Shown here in pieces: positions 1,901 through 16,918 of a stretch of 53,605 nt of DNA. A program made the translations under genes and the position numbers. The notes under the pieces are model-generated. The model was not told the origin of the DNA and made no database searches. It saw only the letters and a program-made list of their open reading frames with translations. Source of the DNA: Actinomycetota bacterium (lineage in GTDB: Bacteria; Actinomycetota; Actinomycetes; S36-B12; UBA5976); NCBI GenBank assembly GCA_041158245.1, contig JBEBBT010000134.1:1-53605 (forward strand), read 5' to 3'. How positions within the stretch are numbered: position 1 is the stretch's first letter; each line of letters begins with the position of its first letter.

Positions 1901-2191
1901 ATGCGTCATTATGAAGTTATGGTCATCCTTGATCCAGATCTAGAGGAACGTACCGTCGCGCCATCGCTCGATACCTATTTGAACGTCGTCAAAAAAGACG
2001 GCGGAACTGTCAACAAGGTTGATATTTGGGGTCGCCGCCGCTTGGCATTCGACATCAACAAAAAAGCCGAAGGCATTTATGCCGTGCTTGATCTCCAGTG
2101 CTCACCAGCCGCTGTAGCTGAGTTGGATCGTCAACTTAGCCTCAATGAGTCTGTAATGCGCACTAAGGTCATGCGACCAGATCAGCGCTAG
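1901..2191 (+). CDS. rpsF: 30S ribosomal protein S6
   Basis: [12 protein letters not shown]... matches the S6 family. ATG 1901 sits 11 nt after the AGGAGG SD, so the track start at 1889 is rejected because it overlaps the SD. Confidence 0.95.
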
Positions 2192-2209
2192 AGACAATAG
2201 AGGTAAATC

Positions 2210-2686
2210 ATGGCTGTTGGAGATATTCAGGTTACATTCATTGGCAACCTGACAGGTGATCCAGAATTACGTTTCACTCCATCAGGCGTTGCAGTTGCAA
2301 ACTTCACAGTTGCTTGCACACCACGTACGTTGGACAAGAACACAAACGAATGGAAAGACGGCGAAACCACTTTCTTGCGTTGCCAGGTTTGGCGCACATA
2401 CGCAGAAAACGTTGCTGAATCTCTAACTCGTGGAACTCGCGTCATCGTTACTGGTCGACTACGTCAACGCAACTACGAAACTAAAGAAGGCGAAAAGCGC
2501 ACTTCAATCGACATCGATGTAGATGATGTTGGTCCAGTGTTGCGTAACGCCACTGCAAAGATCTCTAAGAATGCTGGAAGTTCTGCCGCAGGTGGACGTC
2601 CAGCAGATTCCGGTTCCGAAGATCCATGGGCATCACAAGCTCCAGCATCAGCCTGGGGCGCCCCAACTGAAGAACCACCTTTCTAA
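2210..2686 (+). CDS. ssb: Single-stranded DNA-binding protein
   Basis: OB-fold N-terminus, a Gly/Ser/Ala/Pro-rich linker and the acidic tip EEPPF. It lies in the conserved S6-SSB-S18-L9 order. Confidence 0.95.
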
Positions 2687-2752
2687 ACCTTTAATCGGCC
2701 CATCCCGGCGTTAGAAAAACGACGGGCTACGTACAGAAATCGGAGCACCACG

Positions 2753-3019
2753 ATGGCCAGACCAGAACGTAACAATCGTTCAGACAAGAAAATGGATCTA
2801 CGTAAGCTAAAGAAAAAAGCTTGCCCATTTTGCAAAGAAGAAGCTAAGTCAGTTGATTACAAAGACATCAACTTGCTTCGCAAATACATTTCCGACCGCG
2901 GCAAGATTCGTGCTCGTCGCGTAACCGGCTGCTGCACCCGTCACCAACGTGACATCGCAATGGCAGTTAAGAACGCTCGCGAAGTTGCCCTACTTCCTTA
3001 CACATCAAGCGCACGCTAA
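2753..3019 (+). CDS. rpsR: 30S ribosomal protein S18
   Basis: 88 aa, basic, with a DYKD...[11 protein letters not shown] segment typical of S18. Confidence 0.95.
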
Positions 3020-3031
3020 GGAGATTGACTG

Positions 3032-3478
3032 ATGAAACTAATTCTTACCCAGTCAGTTGACGGCCTTGGAACCCCAGGCGATGTTGTTGAAGTTAAAGAC
3101 GGTTTCGGCCGCAACTTCCTAGTTCCACGCGGCTTTGCAGTTGCTTGGACAAAGGGTGGCGAACGTCAAGCAACCCAGATCAAGCGTGCAGAAAAAGCTC
3201 GTGAAATCCGCGGCGTTGAACACGCAAAAGAAGTTAAGGCTCAACTTGAAGGCCTAAACGTTGTCATCAAAACAAATGCTGGCGATAACGGACGTCTTTT
3301 CGGTTCAATCACCACTGCTGATGTTGTTCTAGCTGTTCGCCAAGCTGGCGGACCATCACTAGATAAGCGCGCAGTGAACATTGCAAAGCACATCAAAAAT
3401 GTTGGAAAGCACAAAGTTGGTGTGCGTCTGCACCCAGCAGTTGAAGCTTCATTCAATGTTGATGTTGTAGCAAACTAA
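3032..3478 (+). CDS. rplI: 50S ribosomal protein L9
   Basis: MKLILTQSV...GDVVEVKDGFGRNFLVPRG matches the L9 N-domain. Confidence 0.95.
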   Translation: MKLILTQSVDGLGTPGDVVEVKDGFGRNFLVPRGFAVAWTKGGERQATQIKRAEKAREIRGVEHAKEVKAQLEGLNVVIKTNAGDNGRLFGSITTADVVLAVRQAGGPSLDKRAVNIAKHIKNVGKHKVGVRLHPAVEASFNVDVVAN

Positions 3479-7527: not shown

Positions 7528-8319
7528 ATGAAAAAAATCATTGTTGCAATTGCCCTGCTGTTTGCAATCACAGGTTGCGCAAATAATTCAGCATCTGATC
7601 CTTTGCCTACCGAATCAAATAGCGCATCGAGCGAGGAAATTGAAGTTTCTTCACTCGACAAACTTGTAGTTTCTACTTACTCCTTGCCGATGGATAAAAC
7701 TTACGATCACATCGATGCAGTGAAATTGACTGTGAAAGACGGTGCGGACGATGTGACTGTAAGAATTGCAAACGAAGTTAATTCTTGGATAGCGTCACAA
7801 ATTGCTGATTTTCAAGCTAACGCAGAGACTTTATATAAAAAAGATAAAAAGTCTGCGACAGTTTTAGAGTTCAACTTAACCTATGATGAATCAGCAATCA
7901 GTAAACGTGTTTATGCACTTACATTCACCGACTACCGATATGAAGGCGGAGCACATGGTTCTAGCACTGTGACCACCTTCGCCTTTGACCTTTCGGATGG
8001 ATCACGCTTTGATCTTGTCTCACAAATTGACCCAGCAAAGCGTGTTCAATTCAACGAAATGGTTGCAAGCGCATTAGGAGAACAAGCCGGAACTTTTGGT
8101 GTGGACTTAGATTCAAAAGAAGCCATCCTTTCTGCTTTAAATGACGACAAAAATTACAGCGCTTGGTTTGCTTCAAAAACCGATGGAATTGCAATAATTT
8201 TTCAACAGTATGCAGTAGGCCCATATTCCTCTGGTCAACCCACAATCGGTTTAAGCTGGGATGAAGTAAAGCAATTCTTAAAGTCTGATTCACTTTTGGC
8301 CTCGGAGTTTGCAAACTAA
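7528..8319 (+). CDS. Lipoprotein with DUF4163/DUF3298-like domain
   Basis: Signal peptide with lipobox ITGC. The YEGGAHGSS segment is typical of DUF3298 (RsiV-like extracytoplasmic domain). Confidence 0.65.
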   Translation: MKKIIVAIALLFAITGCANNSASDPLPTESNSASSEEIEVSSLDKLVVSTYSLPMDKTYDHIDAVKLTVKDGADDVTVRIANEVNSWIASQIADFQANAETLYKKDKKSATVLEFNLTYDESAISKRVYALTFTDYRYEGGAHGSSTVTTFAFDLSDGSRFDLVSQIDPAKRVQFNEMVASALGEQAGTFGVDLDSKEAILSALNDDKNYSAWFASKTDGIAIIFQQYAVGPYSSGQPTIGLSWDEVKQFLKSDSLLASEFAN

Positions 8320-9395
8320 TGAATAAACCAACAGTGCGCTCGGACCTACAAAGCTTGCCGGCTTACAAAGCGGGCCAAAAACTTCAACCGCGAGATGGTC
8401 TCGAAGTTTTTAAGCTCAGCAGTAACGAAAATACTTTTTCTCCGTTGCCTTCAGTGCTTGATGCAATAAATAAGGCAGCTGAAAATATCAATCGATATCC
8501 AGACCCGATGAACACTGAAATGATTTCAGCAATTGCTAAATCAATTGGCGTAGTGCCAGAGAACATTGCAGTTGGAACAGGCTCGGTTGCAGTTCTGGGT
8601 CATCTGATTCAGGCAATGGCCGGTCCAGGTGATGAAGTTATCTATCCATGGCGTTCATTTGAAGCTTATCCAATTTGGATGCAGTTGTGTGGAGTGACTA
8701 GTGTTCCTGTTTCATTGAAAGCTGATAATTCTCATGACCTAGAAGCAATGGCAAAAGCGGTAACTCCTAAAACCAAAATAATCATTGTTTGCACTCCAAA
8801 CAATCCAACTGGAAATGCAATCTCTGCCGCTGATCTTCATGAATTTATGGATTCTGTGCCAAGCCATGTATTAGTGATTATTGATGAAGCGTACGAAGAC
8901 TTCGTCACAGATCCGCAAATGGTCGCTGGAATGGATTTCTTTAAAAAGTATCAAAACGTTGCTTTGCTAAGAACTTTTTCAAAAGCGCAGGGCTTAGCGG
9001 GGATGCGGGTTGGCTATGCGGTAGCACAACCGGAAATAACCGACTTTGTTCGTCGAGTTTCACTTCCGTTTGGTGTGAACATTTTGGCTCAAGCTGCAGT
9101 CGTTGCATCTCTAACCGATGCCGCTAAACGAGAGTTGAAAGAAAGAGTAGATCAAATCTCAAAAGCCAGAGCTGAAATGCTGACTTCATTAAGAGTTGCC
9201 GGCTGGAAGATTGGACCACAGCACGCAAACTTTTTCTGGGTGAATACCGCACATGTTGAGGAACTTAAGAATGCATGCGAATCTGCAGGTGTGGCTGTGA
9301 GACCGTTTCCTGAGGGGATCCGAATCACAATAGGTGAACCTGAAGCAAATGAGAGAATTGTCAAACTGCTTTCAGAGTTTCCAAATAAGAACTAA
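8319..9395 (+). CDS. Histidinol-phosphate/aromatic amino acid aminotransferase (class II, HisC/Pat type)
   Basis: LSSNENTFSPLP, NPTGN and FSKAQGLAGMRVGY (PLP lysine) motifs. TAATG overlap with the upstream stop. Confidence 0.85.
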   Translation: MNKPTVRSDLQSLPAYKAGQKLQPRDGLEVFKLSSNENTFSPLPSVLDAINKAAENINRYPDPMNTEMISAIAKSIGVVPENIAVGTGSVAVLGHLIQAMAGPGDEVIYPWRSFEAYPIWMQLCGVTSVPVSLKADNSHDLEAMAKAVTPKTKIIIVCTPNNPTGNAISAADLHEFMDSVPSHVLVIIDEAYEDFVTDPQMVAGMDFFKKYQNVALLRTFSKAQGLAGMRVGYAVAQPEITDFVRRVSLPFGVNILAQAAVVASLTDAAKRELKERVDQISKARAEMLTSLRVAGWKIGPQHANFFWVNTAHVEELKNACESAGVAVRPFPEGIRITIGEPEANERIVKLLSEFPNKN

Positions 9396-9405
9396 ATCGG
9401 CCAAA

Positions 9406-9438
9406 CTGAGTTGGATAGGTATTTAACTCAGCATTTTT
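9406..9438 (+). terminator. Weak intrinsic terminator after the aminotransferase gene
   Basis: 7-bp stem CTGAGTT/AACTCAG (9406-9412 and 9425-9431), a 12-nt loop, then CATTTTT. Confidence 0.35.
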
Positions 9439-9455
9439 GGGACTAAAGACCCAAG
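9436..9455. promoter_or_regulatory. DosR/DevR-type palindromic box upstream of cydA
   Basis: tttGGGACTaaAGaCCCaag matches the recalled consensus TTSGGGACTWWAGTCCCSAA at 16/20 positions, and at 13/14 in the GGGACTwwAGTCCC core. A DosR-like regulator is encoded about 7 kb downstream. Confidence 0.45.
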
Positions 9456-9507
9456 ACTCCAACTAGCGCAAAACGGCAAGATTTGCGCATAAAAGTTGGA
9501 GGAAAAT

Positions 9508-10905
9508 ATGAGTTCGCTTGATCTCGCCCGTTGGCAATTCGGCATTACAACCGTTTACCACTTTCTATTTGTTCCAATCACCCTAGGCACTTCTTTCTTG
9601 GTGGCAATTATGCAAACCATTTGGGTGAGAACAAATGACGATAAATGGCTACGCGCAACGAAGTTTTTCGGAAAGTTGCTGCTAATCAACTTTGCAATGG
9701 GTGTGGTCACGGGAATTGTTCAAGAATTCCAGTTCGGTATGAACTGGTCGGAATACTCAAGATTTGTGGGCGACATATTTGGTGCCCCACTTGCGGTCGA
9801 AGGATTAGTTGCATTTTTCCTTGAGTCCACATTCTTAGGCCTTTGGATTTTCGGTTGGGATCGCTTGCCAAAGAAAGTTCATCTTGCGACCATTTGGTTG
9901 GCCGCAATCGGAACCGCGCTCTCTGCTTATTTCATTTTGGCTGCAAATGCTTTCATGCAACATCCAGTCGGCTTTGAAATCAATCCAGTAACAAACCGCG
10001 CTGAATTGACTGACTTCATTGCCGTCTTGACTCAAAACACTGCCTGGATTGCTTGGTTACACACTGAAGCATCTTCTTTCTTAGTTAGTGGTGCATTGGT
10101 AGCTGGCGTTAGTGCCTATCTGTTGATGAAAAATAAGGGTGCTGATGTTGCTCGCCTAACATTGAAGTTTGGTGCAATCACTACATTGGTGGCTGGTCTT
10201 GCAGTTGCAATTACTGGTGACATGGATTCAAAAATCATGGTTGTGCAACAGCCAATGAAGATGGCTGCAGCAGAAGCTCTCTACGAAACTGAATCCAATG
10301 CTGGATTTTCAATCTTTACGCTAGGAAATCTTGAAGGCACCCAAGCAACTACTGAGATTAAAGTCCCTGGGCTGCTTTCATTCCTATCCACCGGATCTAC
10401 AGCTGGTGAAGTAAAAGGCTTGAACGATTTACAAGCTGAATACACCCAGACTTATGGTGAAGGTTGGTACATGCCAAATATTCCAACAGCATATTGGTCA
10501 TTCCGTTTGATGATTGGCTTGGGTGGTCTCGCTGTTCTTTATGGAATTTTTGCACTTTGGATTACCCGAAATGGTGCAACTCCAAAATCAAAGTGGTTCC
10601 TGAGAGCTTCTATCGTGGTTCCATTCCTACCGCTGGCTGGTATTTCGTTTGGCTGGTTGTTTACTGAATTGGGTCGCCAACCTTGGTTGGTCTTTGGACA
10701 GTTAATGACTGCCCAAGGTGTTTCATCAAGTGTTGAAGCTGGTTCGGTTTTGTTCACAATGCTTGGCTTCACTTTGCTTTATGGCGTATTAGCTGTAATC
10801 GAATTTGGCTTGTTCACAAAAACCATAAAGCAAGGCCCACCAGATGTTGTTCAAGATCCGTTCAAAGATGAAGATGCAAACCGTCCATTGACGTTTGCGT
10901 ACTAA
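9508..10905 (+). CDS. cydA: Cytochrome bd ubiquinol/menaquinol oxidase subunit I
   Basis: LARWQFGITTVYHFLFVP and GRQPW motifs. ATG 9508 follows a GGAGGA SD; the track start at 9496 overlaps that SD. Confidence 0.95.
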   Translation: MSSLDLARWQFGITTVYHFLFVPITLGTSFLVAIMQTIWVRTNDDKWLRATKFFGKLLLINFAMGVVTGIVQEFQFGMNWSEYSRFVGDIFGAPLAVEGLVAFFLESTFLGLWIFGWDRLPKKVHLATIWLAAIGTALSAYFILAANAFMQHPVGFEINPVTNRAELTDFIAVLTQNTAWIAWLHTEASSFLVSGALVAGVSAYLLMKNKGADVARLTLKFGAITTLVAGLAVAITGDMDSKIMVVQQPMKMAAAEALYETESNAGFSIFTLGNLEGTQATTEIKVPGLLSFLSTGSTAGEVKGLNDLQAEYTQTYGEGWYMPNIPTAYWSFRLMIGLGGLAVLYGIFALWITRNGATPKSKWFLRASIVVPFLPLAGISFGWLFTELGRQPWLVFGQLMTAQGVSSSVEAGSVLFTMLGFTLLYGVLAVIEFGLFTKTIKQGPPDVVQDPFKDEDANRPLTFAY

Positions 10906-10918
10906 GAGAGTGATTTAA

Positions 10919-11974
10919 ATGTTTAATTTAGAGACCCTGCAAACAGTTTGGATTGTATTAATTGCAGTCCTTTGGATTGGCTACTTCGTTCTTGAAGGAT
11001 TTGATTTCGGTGTTGGTGTTTTATTGCCGATACTTGGAAAGAACGAAGCTGAGAAGCGCACGATGCTTACCACTCTCGGACCACTTTGGGACGGAAATGA
11101 AGTCTGGCTATTAGTAGCCGGCGGTGCTACTTTCGCTGCGTTTCCTGAATGGTACGCAACTTTGTTTAGTGGCTTTTACCTTCCACTCTTCTTGATTCTC
11201 TTCGCACTAATCATTCGCGGTGTAGCTTTTGAATATCGTAGTAAATACGGTGACTTGAAATGGCGTGCCCGCTGGGATTTAGCAATTGTGGTCGGATCAT
11301 TCTTGCCAGCACTTCTTTGGGGTGTTGCATTTGCGAATCTGGTTCGAGGAGTTGAACTCGAACAACTTAGTTCTGGTGGATTTATCTACGTAGGTGGATT
11401 TTGGGCACTATTAAATCCATTTTCTCTACTTGGTGGATTGGTCACTTTAACTTTGTTCTTGACTCATGGTGCAATCTTCATCTCACTTAAAACTGATGGT
11501 GAACTTAGATACCGAGCTCGAGCATTAGCAATTCGACTGGGACTTGTTGCGACAGTCTTGGCTGTTGTTTTCCTCCTTTGGGCACAAATTGCATACAGTT
11601 CTAATACCTGGACCTGGGCACCGGTTCTCATTGCAGCGGTTTCTTGGCTCGGTGGCCTTGCCGCAATGTATAGAGGCCGCGAAGGTTGGGCATTCACATT
11701 CAGTGCATTGACTTTGGCGATGGCCGTCACTTCGGTTATTGGATTTATGTATCCGAACGTGATGCCAAACATCGATCGTTCAGAGATTGGACTAACAATT
11801 GCAAATGCATCTTCAACTGAAGGTACTTTGAAGATTATGACAATTGTTGCTTTAGTGATGACTCCAATTGTTTTGGCTTATCAGGCTTGGACATATTGGA
11901 TTTTCAGAAAGCGCCTAACTGCCAGCATGATTCCAAGTCCTGAAAAAGGAACTTTGGATCATGTGAACGCATAG
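10919..11974 (+). CDS. cydB: Cytochrome bd oxidase subunit II
   Basis: 351-aa polytopic protein with FDFGVG and WDGNEVWL motifs, immediately after cydA. Confidence 0.95.
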   Translation: MFNLETLQTVWIVLIAVLWIGYFVLEGFDFGVGVLLPILGKNEAEKRTMLTTLGPLWDGNEVWLLVAGGATFAAFPEWYATLFSGFYLPLFLILFALIIRGVAFEYRSKYGDLKWRARWDLAIVVGSFLPALLWGVAFANLVRGVELEQLSSGGFIYVGGFWALLNPFSLLGGLVTLTLFLTHGAIFISLKTDGELRYRARALAIRLGLVATVLAVVFLLWAQIAYSSNTWTWAPVLIAAVSWLGGLAAMYRGREGWAFTFSALTLAMAVTSVIGFMYPNVMPNIDRSEIGLTIANASSTEGTLKIMTIVALVMTPIVLAYQAWTYWIFRKRLTASMIPSPEKGTLDHVNA

Positions 11975-11994: not shown

Positions 11995-13572
11995 GTGCGA
12001 CCATTTGATCCGAGATTGGCAAAAGAATTAAAGCCAATAAAGGGAGCAATTGGATTCACCGCCGTTTTGGCTTTTCTAGCGGCTATTGCTTTGATTTTTC
12101 AGGCAGTCCTTGCCGCAAAAGCTATTAATGATGCTTTCCTATTAGGGCGTAGCTGGAATGAAGTATTGCCGCTAATTCTCATCGCTGCTGCCGCTTGGGT
12201 TATACGAACACTTCTATCCAGCTTGAACGAATCATTAAGTCGAGAATATGGACTTCAGGCAGTTGCGAATGCCAGAGAAAAATCAGTAGCCCAAATAATG
12301 CAGACAAGAGAATTACCAATCCCAATTGGTGGGGCTGTCACATTGCTCACGCGCGGAATTGAAGGTTTAGAAGTTTATGTTTCTAAGTATCTTCCACAGT
12401 TAGTGATTTCCGCGATTGTTCCGGCCGGGATTGGCGCAGTAATTTTTTGGCTTGACCCATTAGCCGCTTTGATTTTGATCATAACTATTCCGCTAATCCC
12501 GCTCTTTATGGCTTTAGTCGGATGGTTCACTTCAGCAAACGTAGAGAAACATTGGCAGCAAGTCACAAGCCTTTCTTCAACATTGGCAGATTTGATGAAT
12601 GGGCTACCTGAACTGACGATTTTTAATCGAGCAAAGCAGCAAGCATCAGAAATCCACAGACTTGGAACTCTCCAACAAACCGCGACTATGAAAGTTCTAC
12701 GACTTTCATTTCTGTCAGCTTTTGTGCTCGAGCTACTTGCAACTATTTCGGTTGCGATTGTTGCGGTTGCAATTGGTCTGCGCCTAGTCAATGGCGAAAT
12801 AGAGTTTTGGAAAGGCTTAGCAGTTTTAATCCTGGCACCAGATGTTTACGCTCCACTTCGCATGCTTGGAGTGCATTTCCATGCTGCGGTTGAAGGAATG
12901 GAAGCTTGGAACCAAGTTAAATTGATTTTAGATTCACCGAAAGTTAGACGCGGAAAATCTGAAGAGAATATCTCGGAAATTCATTGGCCAAGCCAAGTGA
13001 TTTTCTTGGGCGAAAACAAGATTTCGATACCAGAAGGACATACTTCATCTGGAAAAGTCACTGTGGTTGTAGGGCCAAGTGGAATTGGTAAATCTACGCT
13101 TCTAAAGGTGATTTGTGGTGAACTGTCTGGAGAGGTGAGTTGCAACTCTTTGAGCCAATCCAGTTTTTCGAAGAATGTTGCGTTAGTTGATCAAAGTGCC
13201 CATTTGCCCGAGGGAACTGTTCGGGAGTTACTCCACTTTGGTCGACCGGAGCAGATTTCAGATTCAGAAATTGAGGCTCTGTTAAAGACTTTAGGATTGG
13301 AATTGTCACTAGATCAGGTGGTAAGTGATCGCAGTGTCGGTGTTTCAATTGGCCAAAGACGCAGGCTTGCAATTGCCCATGCACTTCTACGCAAACCTAA
13401 TATTTTGTTACTTGATGAACCAAGTGCAGCTTTAGATGAGCAAAGTGAACTACAAATAATCGAGTCGATACGAAGTTTTGCAGATGCTGGTGGTGCAGTT
13501 CTTGCAGTAGCACACCGTGAGACTTTTAGAAATATCGCAGATGAAATTATTGATTTTGCAGGTAGCAAATGA
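11995..13572 (+). CDS. cydD: ABC exporter CydD (thiol reductant export, bd oxidase assembly)
   Basis: 6-TM domain plus NBD with GPSGIGKST and ILLLDEP. The signature is VSIGQ rather than LSGGQ. Position after cydAB supports the call. Confidence 0.85.
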   Translation: MRPFDPRLAKELKPIKGAIGFTAVLAFLAAIALIFQAVLAAKAINDAFLLGRSWNEVLPLILIAAAAWVIRTLLSSLNESLSREYGLQAVANAREKSVAQIMQTRELPIPIGGAVTLLTRGIEGLEVYVSKYLPQLVISAIVPAGIGAVIFWLDPLAALILIITIPLIPLFMALVGWFTSANVEKHWQQVTSLSSTLADLMNGLPELTIFNRAKQQASEIHRLGTLQQTATMKVLRLSFLSAFVLELLATISVAIVAVAIGLRLVNGEIEFWKGLAVLILAPDVYAPLRMLGVHFHAAVEGMEAWNQVKLILDSPKVRRGKSEENISEIHWPSQVIFLGENKISIPEGHTSSGKVTVVVGPSGIGKSTLLKVICGELSGEVSCNSLSQSSFSKNVALVDQSAHLPEGTVRELLHFGRPEQISDSEIEALLKTLGLELSLDQVVSDRSVGVSIGQRRRLAIAHALLRKPNILLLDEPSAALDEQSELQIIESIRSFADAGGAVLAVAHRETFRNIADEIIDFAGSK

Positions 13573-15140
13573 AAATCTACTGGGCAATTGTTTTAACTTC
13601 TGCAACCATGCTGAGCGCAGTTGGTTTGGTCTCTACAGGGGGATGGTTGATCAGCTCGGCAGCTTTAATGCCACCAATCTTGGTTCTGCAGGTTGCGATT
13701 GTTGCAGTCAGATTTTTTGGAATTTCACGTGGTGTGTTCAGGTGGTCTGAGCGAGTGGTTTCCCATGATGTCGCATTGAGTGGAACCACACTTTTGCGAA
13801 TGCAACTTTGGAAAAAGGCGGCATCACTTGGTCCAGTTGGTGTATGGAGATTAAGAAGTTCCGATGCTTTCGATCGGCTCACCAGCGATACCGAAAATCT
13901 TCAAGATCAGATAACAAGAGTTAAGGTTCCGTTATATGCAGCAACAATGAGTGCGGTTTTGCTAAGTCTGCTGCAATTCCTTTTATTGCCACTAGCTGGC
14001 ATATTTTTCGCATTGTCATTTTTAGTTTCAGGAATAATAATCCCCAAGCTAATCACCAGAATTGAATTAAGAATTGCGCGGGAGGCTATTTCTGTAAGAA
14101 ATCAGATCACCGCAAATATTTACCAGGCAATCAATAACGCACCACAACTTAGAATCCTCAATCTAACGAGTAATCATCTTGAGAACCTCAGAATGTCAGA
14201 AAATTCACGGGTTAAAGTTGAAAGTCGCTCAAGTGTTTGGGCAGGTGTATCAAGTGCATTGAACGGAATAGTTTCAGGCACGGCAGTCTTCATTTCGCTG
14301 ATCGCTGGAACGGTTGCTTTCTCGCAAGGTGGGCTAAGCGGTCAAATGATTGCGGTAGTAACACTTTTGCCTTGGGCAAGTGCAGAAATAGTTGGCACAT
14401 TTAGCCTAGCTGCGAGTGCTAAAACCAGAACTATTTTGGCGAACGAACGAATATCTGACTTTCTAGTGAAAGAAAATGACTTACCAATTGATGAAACAAC
14501 AGATTTATCAAACCCTAGAAAGTTGATTCTTGAAAATGTCTCAGTTGGCTGGGACAAAGAGTTGGTTGTACAAAACTTTAATCTAGAAGTTAAACGAGGC
14601 GAAATCGTTGGCTTGGTCGGATCAAGCGGAAGTGGCAAATCAACAATTTTGAGCGCTATCTTGAGGTTAATTCCACATCAAGGGAATATCCGCATTGACG
14701 ACACTTCAATTTACAACATTAAGAATTTTGAAAATCAAATTACTGCACTATTGCAAACAACCTATATTTTTCACACAACTTTGCGCGAGAATTTAAAAAT
14801 AGCAAATGCGAATGCAATTGATTCAAAACTTCTAGAAGTTATCAATCAAGTTGGACTAGATTCTTGGTTCAAGAGTTTGGATAAGGGTTTAGACACTTTA
14901 ATTGGCGAACCCGATAGATCACTGAGCGGTGGAGAAATTCAGCGGATTGGAATTGCACGCACTATTTTGAGTCACACAAATTTTGTTCTACTTGATGAAC
15001 CAACGGAGCATCTCGATTTTGAAACCGCACAGTCGGTCTGGCAAGTGATTGAAAAGGTGTTTTTGGATAAGGGTGTAATTGTGATAACCCACGACCAAAG
15101 AATCGTCCAAAAGTTTCAAAAGACTGTATCTCTGGATTGA
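13569..15140 (+). CDS. cydC: ABC exporter CydC
   Basis: TM domain plus NBD with GSSGSGKST, LSGGEIQR and VLLDEPTEHLD. 4-nt overlap with cydD. Confidence 0.85.
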   Translation: MKIYWAIVLTSATMLSAVGLVSTGGWLISSAALMPPILVLQVAIVAVRFFGISRGVFRWSERVVSHDVALSGTTLLRMQLWKKAASLGPVGVWRLRSSDAFDRLTSDTENLQDQITRVKVPLYAATMSAVLLSLLQFLLLPLAGIFFALSFLVSGIIIPKLITRIELRIAREAISVRNQITANIYQAINNAPQLRILNLTSNHLENLRMSENSRVKVESRSSVWAGVSSALNGIVSGTAVFISLIAGTVAFSQGGLSGQMIAVVTLLPWASAEIVGTFSLAASAKTRTILANERISDFLVKENDLPIDETTDLSNPRKLILENVSVGWDKELVVQNFNLEVKRGEIVGLVGSSGSGKSTILSAILRLIPHQGNIRIDDTSIYNIKNFENQITALLQTTYIFHTTLRENLKIANANAIDSKLLEVINQVGLDSWFKSLDKGLDTLIGEPDRSLSGGEIQRIGIARTILSHTNFVLLDEPTEHLDFETAQSVWQVIEKVFLDKGVIVITHDQRIVQKFQKTVSLD

Positions 15141-15161: not shown

Positions 15162-16271
15162 GTGAGTGAGCCGCGCGAAACCGAGCTATTTAAAGCAGTC
15201 ATGAGTGTGGTTGCAGATTTGGACCTGCAATCAACACTTGAAACAATTGTTAAAACGGCAGTTAATTTGGTTGATGCTAAGTACGGCGCACTCGGAGTTT
15301 TATCGCCTAAAGGTGGTTTGCAAGATTTCTTTCATGTGGGGATGGAAGAAAACCAAGTGAAAAAGATTGGTCACACCCCAGCCGGCCGTGGGGTGCTTGG
15401 CCTACTCGTTCAATATCCGGAACCAATTCGACTTTCAGATTTAAGCAAACATCCAGCTAGCTTTGGTTTTCCTGAAAATCACCCGCCAATGAAATCCTTT
15501 TTAGGTGTGCCTGTGCGAGTCCGTGGTGAAGTATTTGGAAATCTATATCTAACCGAAAAAAAGGGTGAAGCCGAATTCACCGAACAAGATGAAGAGTTGG
15601 TTGTTGGACTTGCTGCCGCAGCTGGTTTGGCAATCGAGAATGCGAGGCTTTTTTCAAAAACTCAAGCAATTGCGGTGTACGAAGACCGCGAAAGGATTGC
15701 ACGCGACTTACACGATCTAGTAATCCAACAGTTGTTCGCAACTGGTATGACTTTGGAATCGATTGCTAGACGATCAGCTGATAGTCCAGAAGCTGAAAAA
15801 ATAAATCAAGCGGTCGAGGATTTAGACCGGACAATAAAACAAATTCGCCAAAGTATTTACGCATTGACAACGCCTGAAAACGACGGGGTGTCGCTGCGCC
15901 GCCGAGTGATGCATGAGGTGGAAAGTTACACAGTTTTACTTGGTACGACTCCTTCAATTTCCTTTGAAGGACCGGTTGATTCGATGACGAGTGATCGCGA
16001 AACCAATCAAGTGGTCGCTACATTGCGTGAATTACTTTCTAATGCAGTTCGACATGCGCAAGCAACAGCAGTTTCTGTGTCATTGCAGATAGTTGATCAT
16101 CATTTGGCACTCACAGTTTCGGATAACGGTGTGGGCATCCCGGAAACAGTTAGTCGTAGTGGATTAGAGAATTTGCGCAAACGAGCTGAGGCCATGGGCG
16201 GCAGTTTTGAAACCAACAAAGTAGAACCAAGCGGCACTAAAGCAAAGTGGATGATTCCGCTTAACAATTAG
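15162..16271 (+). CDS. Soluble single-GAF sensor histidine kinase, DosS/DosT (DevS)-like
   Basis: No TM segment. The GAF domain carries [27 protein letters not shown], which closely resembles the heme-binding GAF-A of DevS/DosT as recalled. HisKA_3 H-box is [13 protein letters not shown], followed by a C-terminal HATPase_c. Confidence 0.75.
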   Translation: [369 protein letters not shown]

Positions 16272-16918
16272 TCGCGGCCAGCTTCGCCAATTCCAAGCCG
16301 CGCAATAAATGCTGCTGCTTGACTTCTACGTTCCATGCCAAGTTTTGCGAGGACCGACGAGACATAATTCTTGATGGTTTTTTCTGCCAAAAACATTTGC
16401 TCTGCAATTTGGCGATTGCTCATTCCTTCGCCAATGAATTCAAGAACTCTGCGTTCTTGATCTGTTAAATCATCAAGCATTGAATAAACCGAACTTCCTT
16501 TTCGTAGGCGATTTCGAACCTGATCAACAGCTTTTTGATCTAACAAACTTTTACCAGTTGATACATCTTTAATCATTTGAATCAGGTCGCCACTTCGGAT
16601 ATCTTTCAAAACATATCCGTGTGCGCCAGCTAAGACTGCACTTAATAGTGCTTCATCATCAGCGTAAGAAGTCAACATCAATACATTGATTTCCGGTGCG
16701 AGTGCACGCAGGTCTCTACAAACCTCAATCCCAGATCCATCTGGAAGCCGAACATCCAGCACGGCAACGTCTGGTCGCTTTACCAAGATTCCTTGTAAAC
16801 CTTCGGCGCAAGTTCCAGCATCACCCACAACTTCCATGCCTGGCTCGGAGGAAATCAGATCAGATAGTCCACGACGGACCACCTCGTGGTCATCCATGAG
16901 AAATACCCGAATAGTCAT
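16268..16918 (-). CDS. NarL/LuxR-family response regulator, DosR (DevR)-like
   Basis: The REC domain (DDHEVVRRGL...VAVLDVRLPDGSGIE) and C-terminal HTH (LTDQERRVL...MFLAEKTIKNYVSSVLAKLGMERRSQAA) resemble DosR along the whole length, as recalled. Confidence 0.8.
   Translation of the reverse strand: MTIRVFLMDDHEVVRRGLSDLISSEPGMEVVGDAGTCAEGLQGILVKRPDVAVLDVRLPDGSGIEVCRDLRALAPEINVLMLTSYADDEALLSAVLAGAHGYVLKDIRSGDLIQMIKDVSTGKSLLDQKAVDQVRNRLRKGSSVYSMLDDLTDQERRVLEFIGEGMSNRQIAEQMFLAEKTIKNYVSSVLAKLGMERRSQAAAFIARLGIGEAGRD

Follow-up and report, generated by a model that had tools for sequence, protein, structure and literature searches.

The 20-mer tttGGGACTaaAGaCCCaag, located upstream of cydA at positions 9436-9455 of the window (the whole stretch of 53,605 nucleotides analyzed here), is, to judge from its sequence and conservation, almost certainly a genuine operator of the DosR/DevR type (Dev box). 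Very probably it is the operator of the DosR-type response regulator encoded in the same locus and serves to activate the cydABDC-dosS operon. On our best reading of these comparisons, the regulator and its operator belong to a known family, the differences lie in the principal target, the trimmed sensor, and the unusual layout of the operon, and the arrangement appears to be widespread outside mycobacteria. The features of the locus are collected in Table 1.

Table 1. Features of the cyd locus in the window
Feature	Position	Strand	Evidence and remarks
hisC-type histidinol-phosphate aminotransferase gene	8319-9395		Pfam/NCBIfam; upstream of the box
Terminator-like hairpin of the hisC-type gene	9406..9438	+	Terminator scan; stem-loop 9406-9431, T-run 9434-9438
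Predicted DosR/DevR-type operator (Dev box) TTTGGGACTAAAGACCCAAG	9436..9455	.	Leave-one-out PWM and conservation; core 9439-9452, centre 9445.5
Inverted repeat GCGCAAA-N9-TTTGCGC	9466..9488	.	Overlaps the predicted -10 hexamer
Predicted -10 hexamer CAAGAT (cAnnnT class)	9477..9482	+	24 nt past the box core; genus-wide spacing
Shine-Dalgarno sequence GGAGGA of cydA	9498..9503	+	Conserved in two relatives (L002, L006)
cydA, cytochrome bd oxidase subunit I	9508..10905	+	Pfam PF01654, E 3e-160
cydB, cytochrome bd oxidase subunit II	10919..11974	+	Pfam PF02322, E 2e-109
cydD, ABC exporter subunit for bd assembly	11995..13572	+	NCBIfam TIGR02857, 435.1 bits (cutoff 435)
cydC, ABC exporter subunit	13569..15140	+	NCBIfam TIGR02868, 413.9 bits (cutoff 329)
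Single-GAF DosS/DosT-like haem sensor histidine kinase gene	15162..16271	+	Pfam GAF, HisKA_3, and HATPase
DosR/DevR-type NarL/LuxR response regulator gene	16268..16918	-	PDB 3c3w (DevR), E 9.5e-73

Compared with TTSGGGACTWWAGTCCCSAA, which we take to be the M. tuberculosis DosR consensus, the 20-mer is identical at 16 of 20 positions and its 14-bp core at 13 of 14. These are the counts given in the original prediction, which had also placed the site about 50 nt before the cydA start; the measured distance to the ATG (9508) is 52 nt from the end of the box and 62 nt from its centre. The half-sites read GGGACT on the left and, on the opposite strand, GGGTCT on the right, with the G and the C present in both. 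The sole mismatch in the core (T to A) concerns the A that stands between the essential G and C, and both of these are spared. It is the G5 and C7 of the 18-mer that are required in each half-site for DevR binding (Chauhan et al., PMC3177182).

The four genes cydA, cydB, cydD, and cydC form one string, with gaps of 13, 20, and -4 nt and with Pfam and NCBIfam scores above the cut-offs. The kinase gene, which begins 21 nt past cydC, probably belongs to the cyd operon as its fifth cistron. On the other side, the hairpin and the T-run of the hisC-type gene abut the box, which would thus head a new transcription unit. The kinase and regulator genes are convergent and their 3' ends overlap by 4 nt (16268-16271); since no terminator lies between them, the two transcripts would be mutually antisense.

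The original prediction had described the two genes following cydC as encoding a DosR-like regulator and a DosS-like kinase, and alignments identify them as true DosR and haem-type DosS homologues. The regulator, composed of a receiver domain (Pfam PF00072) and a GerE/LuxR helix-turn-helix domain (PF00196), is 57% identical to M. tuberculosis DevR (PDB 3c3w) in a gapless alignment of 206 aa and 67% identical to it in the DNA-binding domain, the next-best PDB structure being VraR (E 1.5e-37). The receiver motifs DD, D (the phospho-acceptor), T, and K align identically with those of DevR, the pairs being MDDHE/VDDHE, VLDVRLPDG/VLDVRLPDG, LTSY/LTSY, and VLKD/VVKD for the regulator and DevR, respectively. 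The recognition stretch AEKTIKNYVS differs from AEKTVKNYVS of DevR by a single Ile-for-Val change and retains EKTxKN. Because only this residue differs in the reading helix, the DNA-contacting Lys, Lys, and Asn are retained; in DevR these are Lys179, Lys182, and Asn183, which contact the GGGAC bases in the DevR-DNA structure. NCBIfam has no DosR-specific model, and the best match of the regulator in that collection, MadR, is below the cut-off. A tblastn search of the 76%-complete assembly found no second regulator of the DosR kind.

The GAF domain of the kinase is 58% identical to GAF-A of DosT (PDB 2vzw, E 1e-49), also matches GAF-A of DevS, and retains both the proximal His (HPPM) and the distal Tyr (LYLT in FGNLYLTEK); from this homology to DosS and DosT, it is predicted to bind haem. 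The transmitter consists of the HisKA_3 (Pfam PF07730) and HATPase_c (PF02518) domains, and the ATP domain matches the DevS and DosT structures 3zxo and 3zxq. Pfam finds one GAF domain in the 369 aa of the protein, GAF-B being absent. Throughout the genus the kinase has a single GAF domain and a length of 369-378 aa (L031, L033, L034, L036, and L037), whereas other families of the order (L039, L046, L048, and L057) possess a two-GAF kinase of about 550 aa, which suggests that the loss of GAF-B is a derived feature of this streamlined genus.

The closest relatives of the genome are freshwater MAGs of Candidatus Nanopelagicales (NCBI), and the string of cydABDC and the kinase gene, convergent with the regulator gene, is retained in about 25 loci of this order. 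Genes cydABDC also adjoin the gene for a DosR homologue in Nocardiopsis, Streptosporangiaceae, and Nocardioidaceae MAGs. The original prediction had been made to depend on conservation of the motif upstream of orthologous cydA genes, and such conservation is observed. A core with at most two mismatches is present in 27 of the 45 upstream regions (200 nt each) from relatives, the expected number, derived from four such cores in the other 416 kb of these loci, being 0.08; as the compared sequences are related, Poisson and Fisher values calculated from them overstate the significance. Even within the genus, the box persists between flanks that cannot be aligned. An unseeded enrichment analysis of 6-mers in the cydA upstream regions placed GACTTT, GGACTT, GGGACT, and CAAAGT on top. 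In the boxes of 30 relatives, only columns G6, C8, G13, and C15 are invariant, and mismatches occur elsewhere at most core positions; these invariant columns correspond to the G and C on which DevR binding depends (PMC3177182).

The occurrence of the box follows that of the regulator. Among genomes with a DosR orthologue, 16 have the box and 5 do not, whereas among those without it the numbers are 1 and 7 (Fisher p=0.003, overstated for the reason given above). Genomes G014, G027, G045, G048, G050, G055, and G060 possess cydA and lack both the DosR orthologue and the box; the lone box without a DosR orthologue comes from a fragmented MAG (G011). Beyond the order, the box was found in a Streptosporangiaceae MAG and in the cultured Nocardioides baculatus, where a 23.9-bit box lies 118 nt before cydA, a weaker box follows 23 bp downstream, and dosR is located elsewhere in the genome. 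In three Streptomyces genomes (L132-L134), all with a DosR homologue, no Dev box was found before cydA.

Two further elements were observed in the compared upstream regions. In the same three Streptomyces genomes, the palindrome AATGTGAATACGTTCACAAG (TGTGAA-N6-TTCACA), presumably of the Rex-operator type, lies 48-55 nt before cydA. One relative (L027, genome G003) has two copies of the direct repeat GGACGTACCGCAA, located some 25-90 nt before its Dev box.

Given the base composition of the 1.2-Mb assembly (177 contigs, 76% complete), 0.57 cores with at most one mismatch and 3.9 20-mers with at most four mismatches are expected in it by chance, so that the match by itself is not significant genome-wide. 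The window site is the only core with at most one mismatch in the genome and also its best 20-mer, and it falls in the 112-nt intergenic region before cydA, where the expected count is about 5e-5. A log-odds matrix was constructed from the cydA boxes of 30 relatives, with the box of the window left out; on this matrix, which is biased towards the M. tuberculosis core because the boxes had been chosen by likeness to it, the window site scores 21.3 bits and the runner-up in the 1.2 Mb scores 13.7 bits. The four top matches in the genome are all intergenic. Thus the scan of the genome for such boxes, proposed together with the original prediction, returned one outstanding site. The same matrix gave 12.8 bits to a perfect palindrome, GAGACTTAGGTCTC, on another contig (C93:2596-2615, outside the window). 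It is situated about 50 nt before a small ORF (MAAMKPRTGDGPMEV...) that resembles a conserved actinobacterial DUF3117 protein, and may be the site of another factor.

The position of the box relative to the candidate promoter is also conserved. In seven of the eight same-genus loci, exactly 24 nt separate the core from a downstream hexamer of the cAnnnT/aAnnnT type (CAAGAT, CAGGAT, CACCCT in two loci, AACCCT, CACGCT, and CACTCT), and in the remaining one (L003) the spacing is off by one base. TGn stands before the hexamer in five of the seven, as in extended -10 promoters. The centre of the box lies 31.5 nt before the predicted -10 hexamer of the window; if this hexamer is indeed the -10 element, transcription would start near position 9489 and the box would be centred at about -43.5. 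A scan for consensus promoters found no sigma-70 -35/-10 pair in the cydA upstream region, which fits an activator-dependent promoter. A search among RNA-seq and metatranscriptome runs gave none that contains this stretch.

In M. tuberculosis, boxes usually occur in tandem and in phase, those of the tgs1 promoter having their centres at -42.5 and -63.5; at least two tandem boxes are required at the DevR promoters of this species, the secondary ones being often unrecognizable by sequence (PMC3177182). The main formal departure from this rule is that in the window genus the strong box is the proximal one and has no recognizable partner: the next best site in the window scores -1.2 bits on the matrix. 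Other families of the order do have two boxes, a strong distal one (GGGACCAAAGTCCC) and, 21-23 bp downstream, a weaker, GGAC-containing one, with an aAGAAT hexamer about 31 nt past the centre of this proximal box.

Several other elements near the box were considered and rejected. A weak second box at 9418-9431 (GGTATTTAACTCAG, 21 bp upstream) coincides with the descending arm of the hisC hairpin and has no consistent counterpart in relatives from the genus. The inverted repeat at 9466-9488 was considered as a second operator or a 5'-UTR hairpin; its arms are non-complementary in the closest relatives (L006 and L002), and it is probably fortuitous and non-functional. An interpretation of the box as an RNA hairpin or terminator was likewise dismissed, as the stem is poor and lacks a T-tail, and as it is the sequence rather than the pairing that is conserved.

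These data also bear on explanations other than activation by the neighbouring regulator. The box might have arisen by chance or might have no regulatory function, being for instance a part of the hisC terminator, given that about 0.6 cores of such quality are expected per genome and that the hisC T-run overlaps the left flank of the box. However, the box would form a poor hairpin, its loop being 2 nt long and its stem interrupted by an A-A mismatch, and it is conserved as a sequence, without compensatory changes, between diverging flanks and at a fixed spacing to the -10 hexamer, which makes this explanation extremely improbable. That the palindrome serves another factor (another NarL/LuxR-type regulator or an unrelated dimer), its likeness to the Dev box being coincidental, is very unlikely as well. 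Another regulator could be missing from an assembly that is 76% complete, but the sole full-length NarL-type regulator with this helix in the assembly adjoins the operon, the box tracks DosR across genomes, and its invariant bases are those needed by DevR.

It is also conceivable, though unlikely, that DosR binds the box and represses or modulates the operon, for example by switching the bd oxidase off under the sensed condition. Regulators of the NarL family can repress, the transcription start is a predicted one, and the single box is unlike the tandem activating layout of M. tuberculosis. Yet the box is clear of the predicted -10 hexamer and start, and its fixed position 24 nt upstream of a weak -10 element without a -35 element is a signature of activator-dependent promoters; the geometry fits that of activating DevR boxes at -42.5, and a high-affinity oxidase turned on at low O2 makes physiological sense.

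For the reading that we favour, activation of the cydABDC-dosS operon by the DosR-type regulator, the following mechanism can be proposed. The soluble single-GAF kinase, with haem in the pocket of its GAF-A domain, would by analogy with its homologues be active at low O2 or with NO or CO bound, and would phosphorylate the conserved Asp of the regulator. The regulator dimer would occupy the GGGACT/AGaCCC palindrome, centred at about -43.5 relative to the predicted start of a promoter with a poor -35 element and a cAnnnT -10 element, and would recruit RNA polymerase there, as at the M. tuberculosis DevR promoters. Expression of the operon would then yield the bd oxidase, the CydDC exporter, and more kinase, the last amounting to positive feedback on the sensor. 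The regulator gene would be transcribed from a box-free promoter of its own; autoregulation of dosR was considered and rejected, the 65-nt region before the gene containing no box (best score -14 bits).

A natural deletion is found in a MAG of the same genus (L037, genome G005, positions 2100-3160), where the interval from hisC to the kinase gene lacks cydABDC and contains instead an EamA/DMT transporter gene on the opposite strand. The box (TTGCGGACTTTAGACCTATG) and the TGC-CACTCT element at 24-nt spacing are retained directly upstream of the dosS-like kinase gene. The retention of the box and the promoter before the kinase gene supports normal read-through to dosS and, with it, positive feedback on the sensor, while the retention of the box without cydABDC supports selection on the box tied to the two-component system.

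A second candidate member of the regulon was identified outside the window. The site CTTGGGACTTTAGACCAAAG (C171:10339-10358, 13.4 bits) lies between menG, encoding demethylmenaquinone methyltransferase, and menF, encoding isochorismate synthase. Its core is followed by 24 nt, the hexamer TAACCT, six nt, and the menF ATG, so that the box would be centred 43.5 nt before a predicted leaderless start. The -10 hexamer and the leaderless start of menF are widespread in relatives, and the box is confined to the closest ones (G004, G006, and G007; L140-L142), in one of them with an altered spacer. By these comparisons, menF is a probable recent recruit to the DosR regulon; menaquinol is the substrate of the bd oxidase.

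By contrast with menF, a gene for a ctpF-like P-type ATPase (C30:2465, 13.7 bits) was rejected as a target: a -10 hexamer at the proper distance is lacking, and the regions before its homologues in relatives, whose orthology, established with a 60-aa query, is weak, yielded no box. No other site in the matrix scan exceeds 13.7 bits, and a multi-operon regulon of the dormancy type is therefore not apparent. The circuit had been called minimal in the original prediction; this is plausible in view of the scan, with the qualifications that the assembly is 76% complete and that menF is a second likely target. The genome also contains a second cydAB pair on a 2.6-kb contig (C163:53-2475, outside the window; 57% and 52% identity), with no Dev box in the 166 upstream bases available. 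This pair may be a paralogue, several relatives having two copies, or a contamination of the bin.

With M. tuberculosis DevR/DosR and its class I promoters tgs1-Rv3131 and hspX (PMC3177182), the system shares the GGGACT half-sites with the essential G and C in both halves, a near-identical reading helix, and a box near -43, here predicted, by a weak promoter. The tandem boxes of M. tuberculosis resemble those of the relatives, which are about 21-22 bp apart, whereas the window genus has one recognizable box; further, the likely target here is cydABDC, and there is no box at the promoter of the regulator itself. In mycobacteria, the bd oxidase genes are turned on by hypoxia or CO but do not belong to the dos regulon (PMC8125079, PMC7719681), in agreement with the remark in the original prediction that cydABDC is not usually counted in the M. 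tuberculosis DosR regulon. The circuit may thus be termed rewired, as had been suggested, relative to M. tuberculosis. It is not special to this genome, however, as the synteny and the box span the order and recur in Nocardioides baculatus and the Streptosporangiaceae MAG.

The kinase resembles DosS (DevS) and DosT in being soluble and in having the same haem-type GAF-A domain with the His and Tyr residues and the same HisKA_3 and HATPase transmitter. It differs from them in having one GAF domain in 369 aa rather than the GAF-A/GAF-B tandem, and in the position of its gene, which probably closes the target operon and converges on the regulator gene instead of being co-transcribed with it. Other regulators of cyd operons in Actinobacteria include Rex in Streptomyces and Crp, which has been implicated in mycobacteria. 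The two-component system SenX3-RegX3 has also been implicated in the control of the mycobacterial bd oxidase (PMC3116866). All three tie transcription of the bd oxidase genes to the redox or oxygen status; in contrast, the sensor predicted here is a haem-based two-component kinase that would read the gas directly and is encoded inside the regulated operon.

Another DosR orthologue outside mycobacteria that has a Dev-box-like palindrome is OsdR of the OsdK/OsdR system of Streptomyces coelicolor, whose regulon is large, comprising stress and development genes, and includes no cyd genes among the reported targets (PMC5069765). In Streptomyces lividans, the OsdR regulon is co-expressed with cydAB, direct regulation having been left unclear (PMC6302529). 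Among the papers searched, we found none that links DosR or OsdR directly to cydA or to a Dev box before it; an earlier prediction of this kind in non-mycobacterial actinomycetes may exist.

Nanopelagicales have been described as the most abundant bacterioplankton order of lakes, and cytochrome bd, found in some Planktophila and Aquilimus, probably raises their tolerance of reduced oxygen; its regulation and the sensing of oxygen by these very small genomes were not addressed in that work (PMC12817590). For this low-oxygen trait, the window offers a predicted haem-based gas-sensing circuit with a specific operator and promoter geometry. In principle such a circuit is unsurprising, since a hypoxia sensor driving a high-affinity oxidase is logical. 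The single-GAF kinase constitutes a natural test of the need for GAF-B in signalling, and Nocardioides baculatus, a cultured bacterium with the box before cydA, could serve as a tractable model.

As the same wiring is seen across the order, in Nocardioides, and in Streptosporangiaceae, control of the bd oxidase could be an old and widespread role of DosR rather than a recent rewiring. We tentatively put forward, as a possibility on which we would not yet rely, that DosRS is here a self-contained respiratory switch with a regulon of cydABDC-dosS and perhaps menF, and that the control of the bd oxidase is an old DosR role lost in mycobacteria. If true, this would be the smallest DosR regulon known, and a one-GAF haem kinase would be encoded by the last gene of the operon that it induces. 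In many other Actinomycetota, the best-studied "dormancy" regulator of tuberculosis probably has a core task that is different and simpler.
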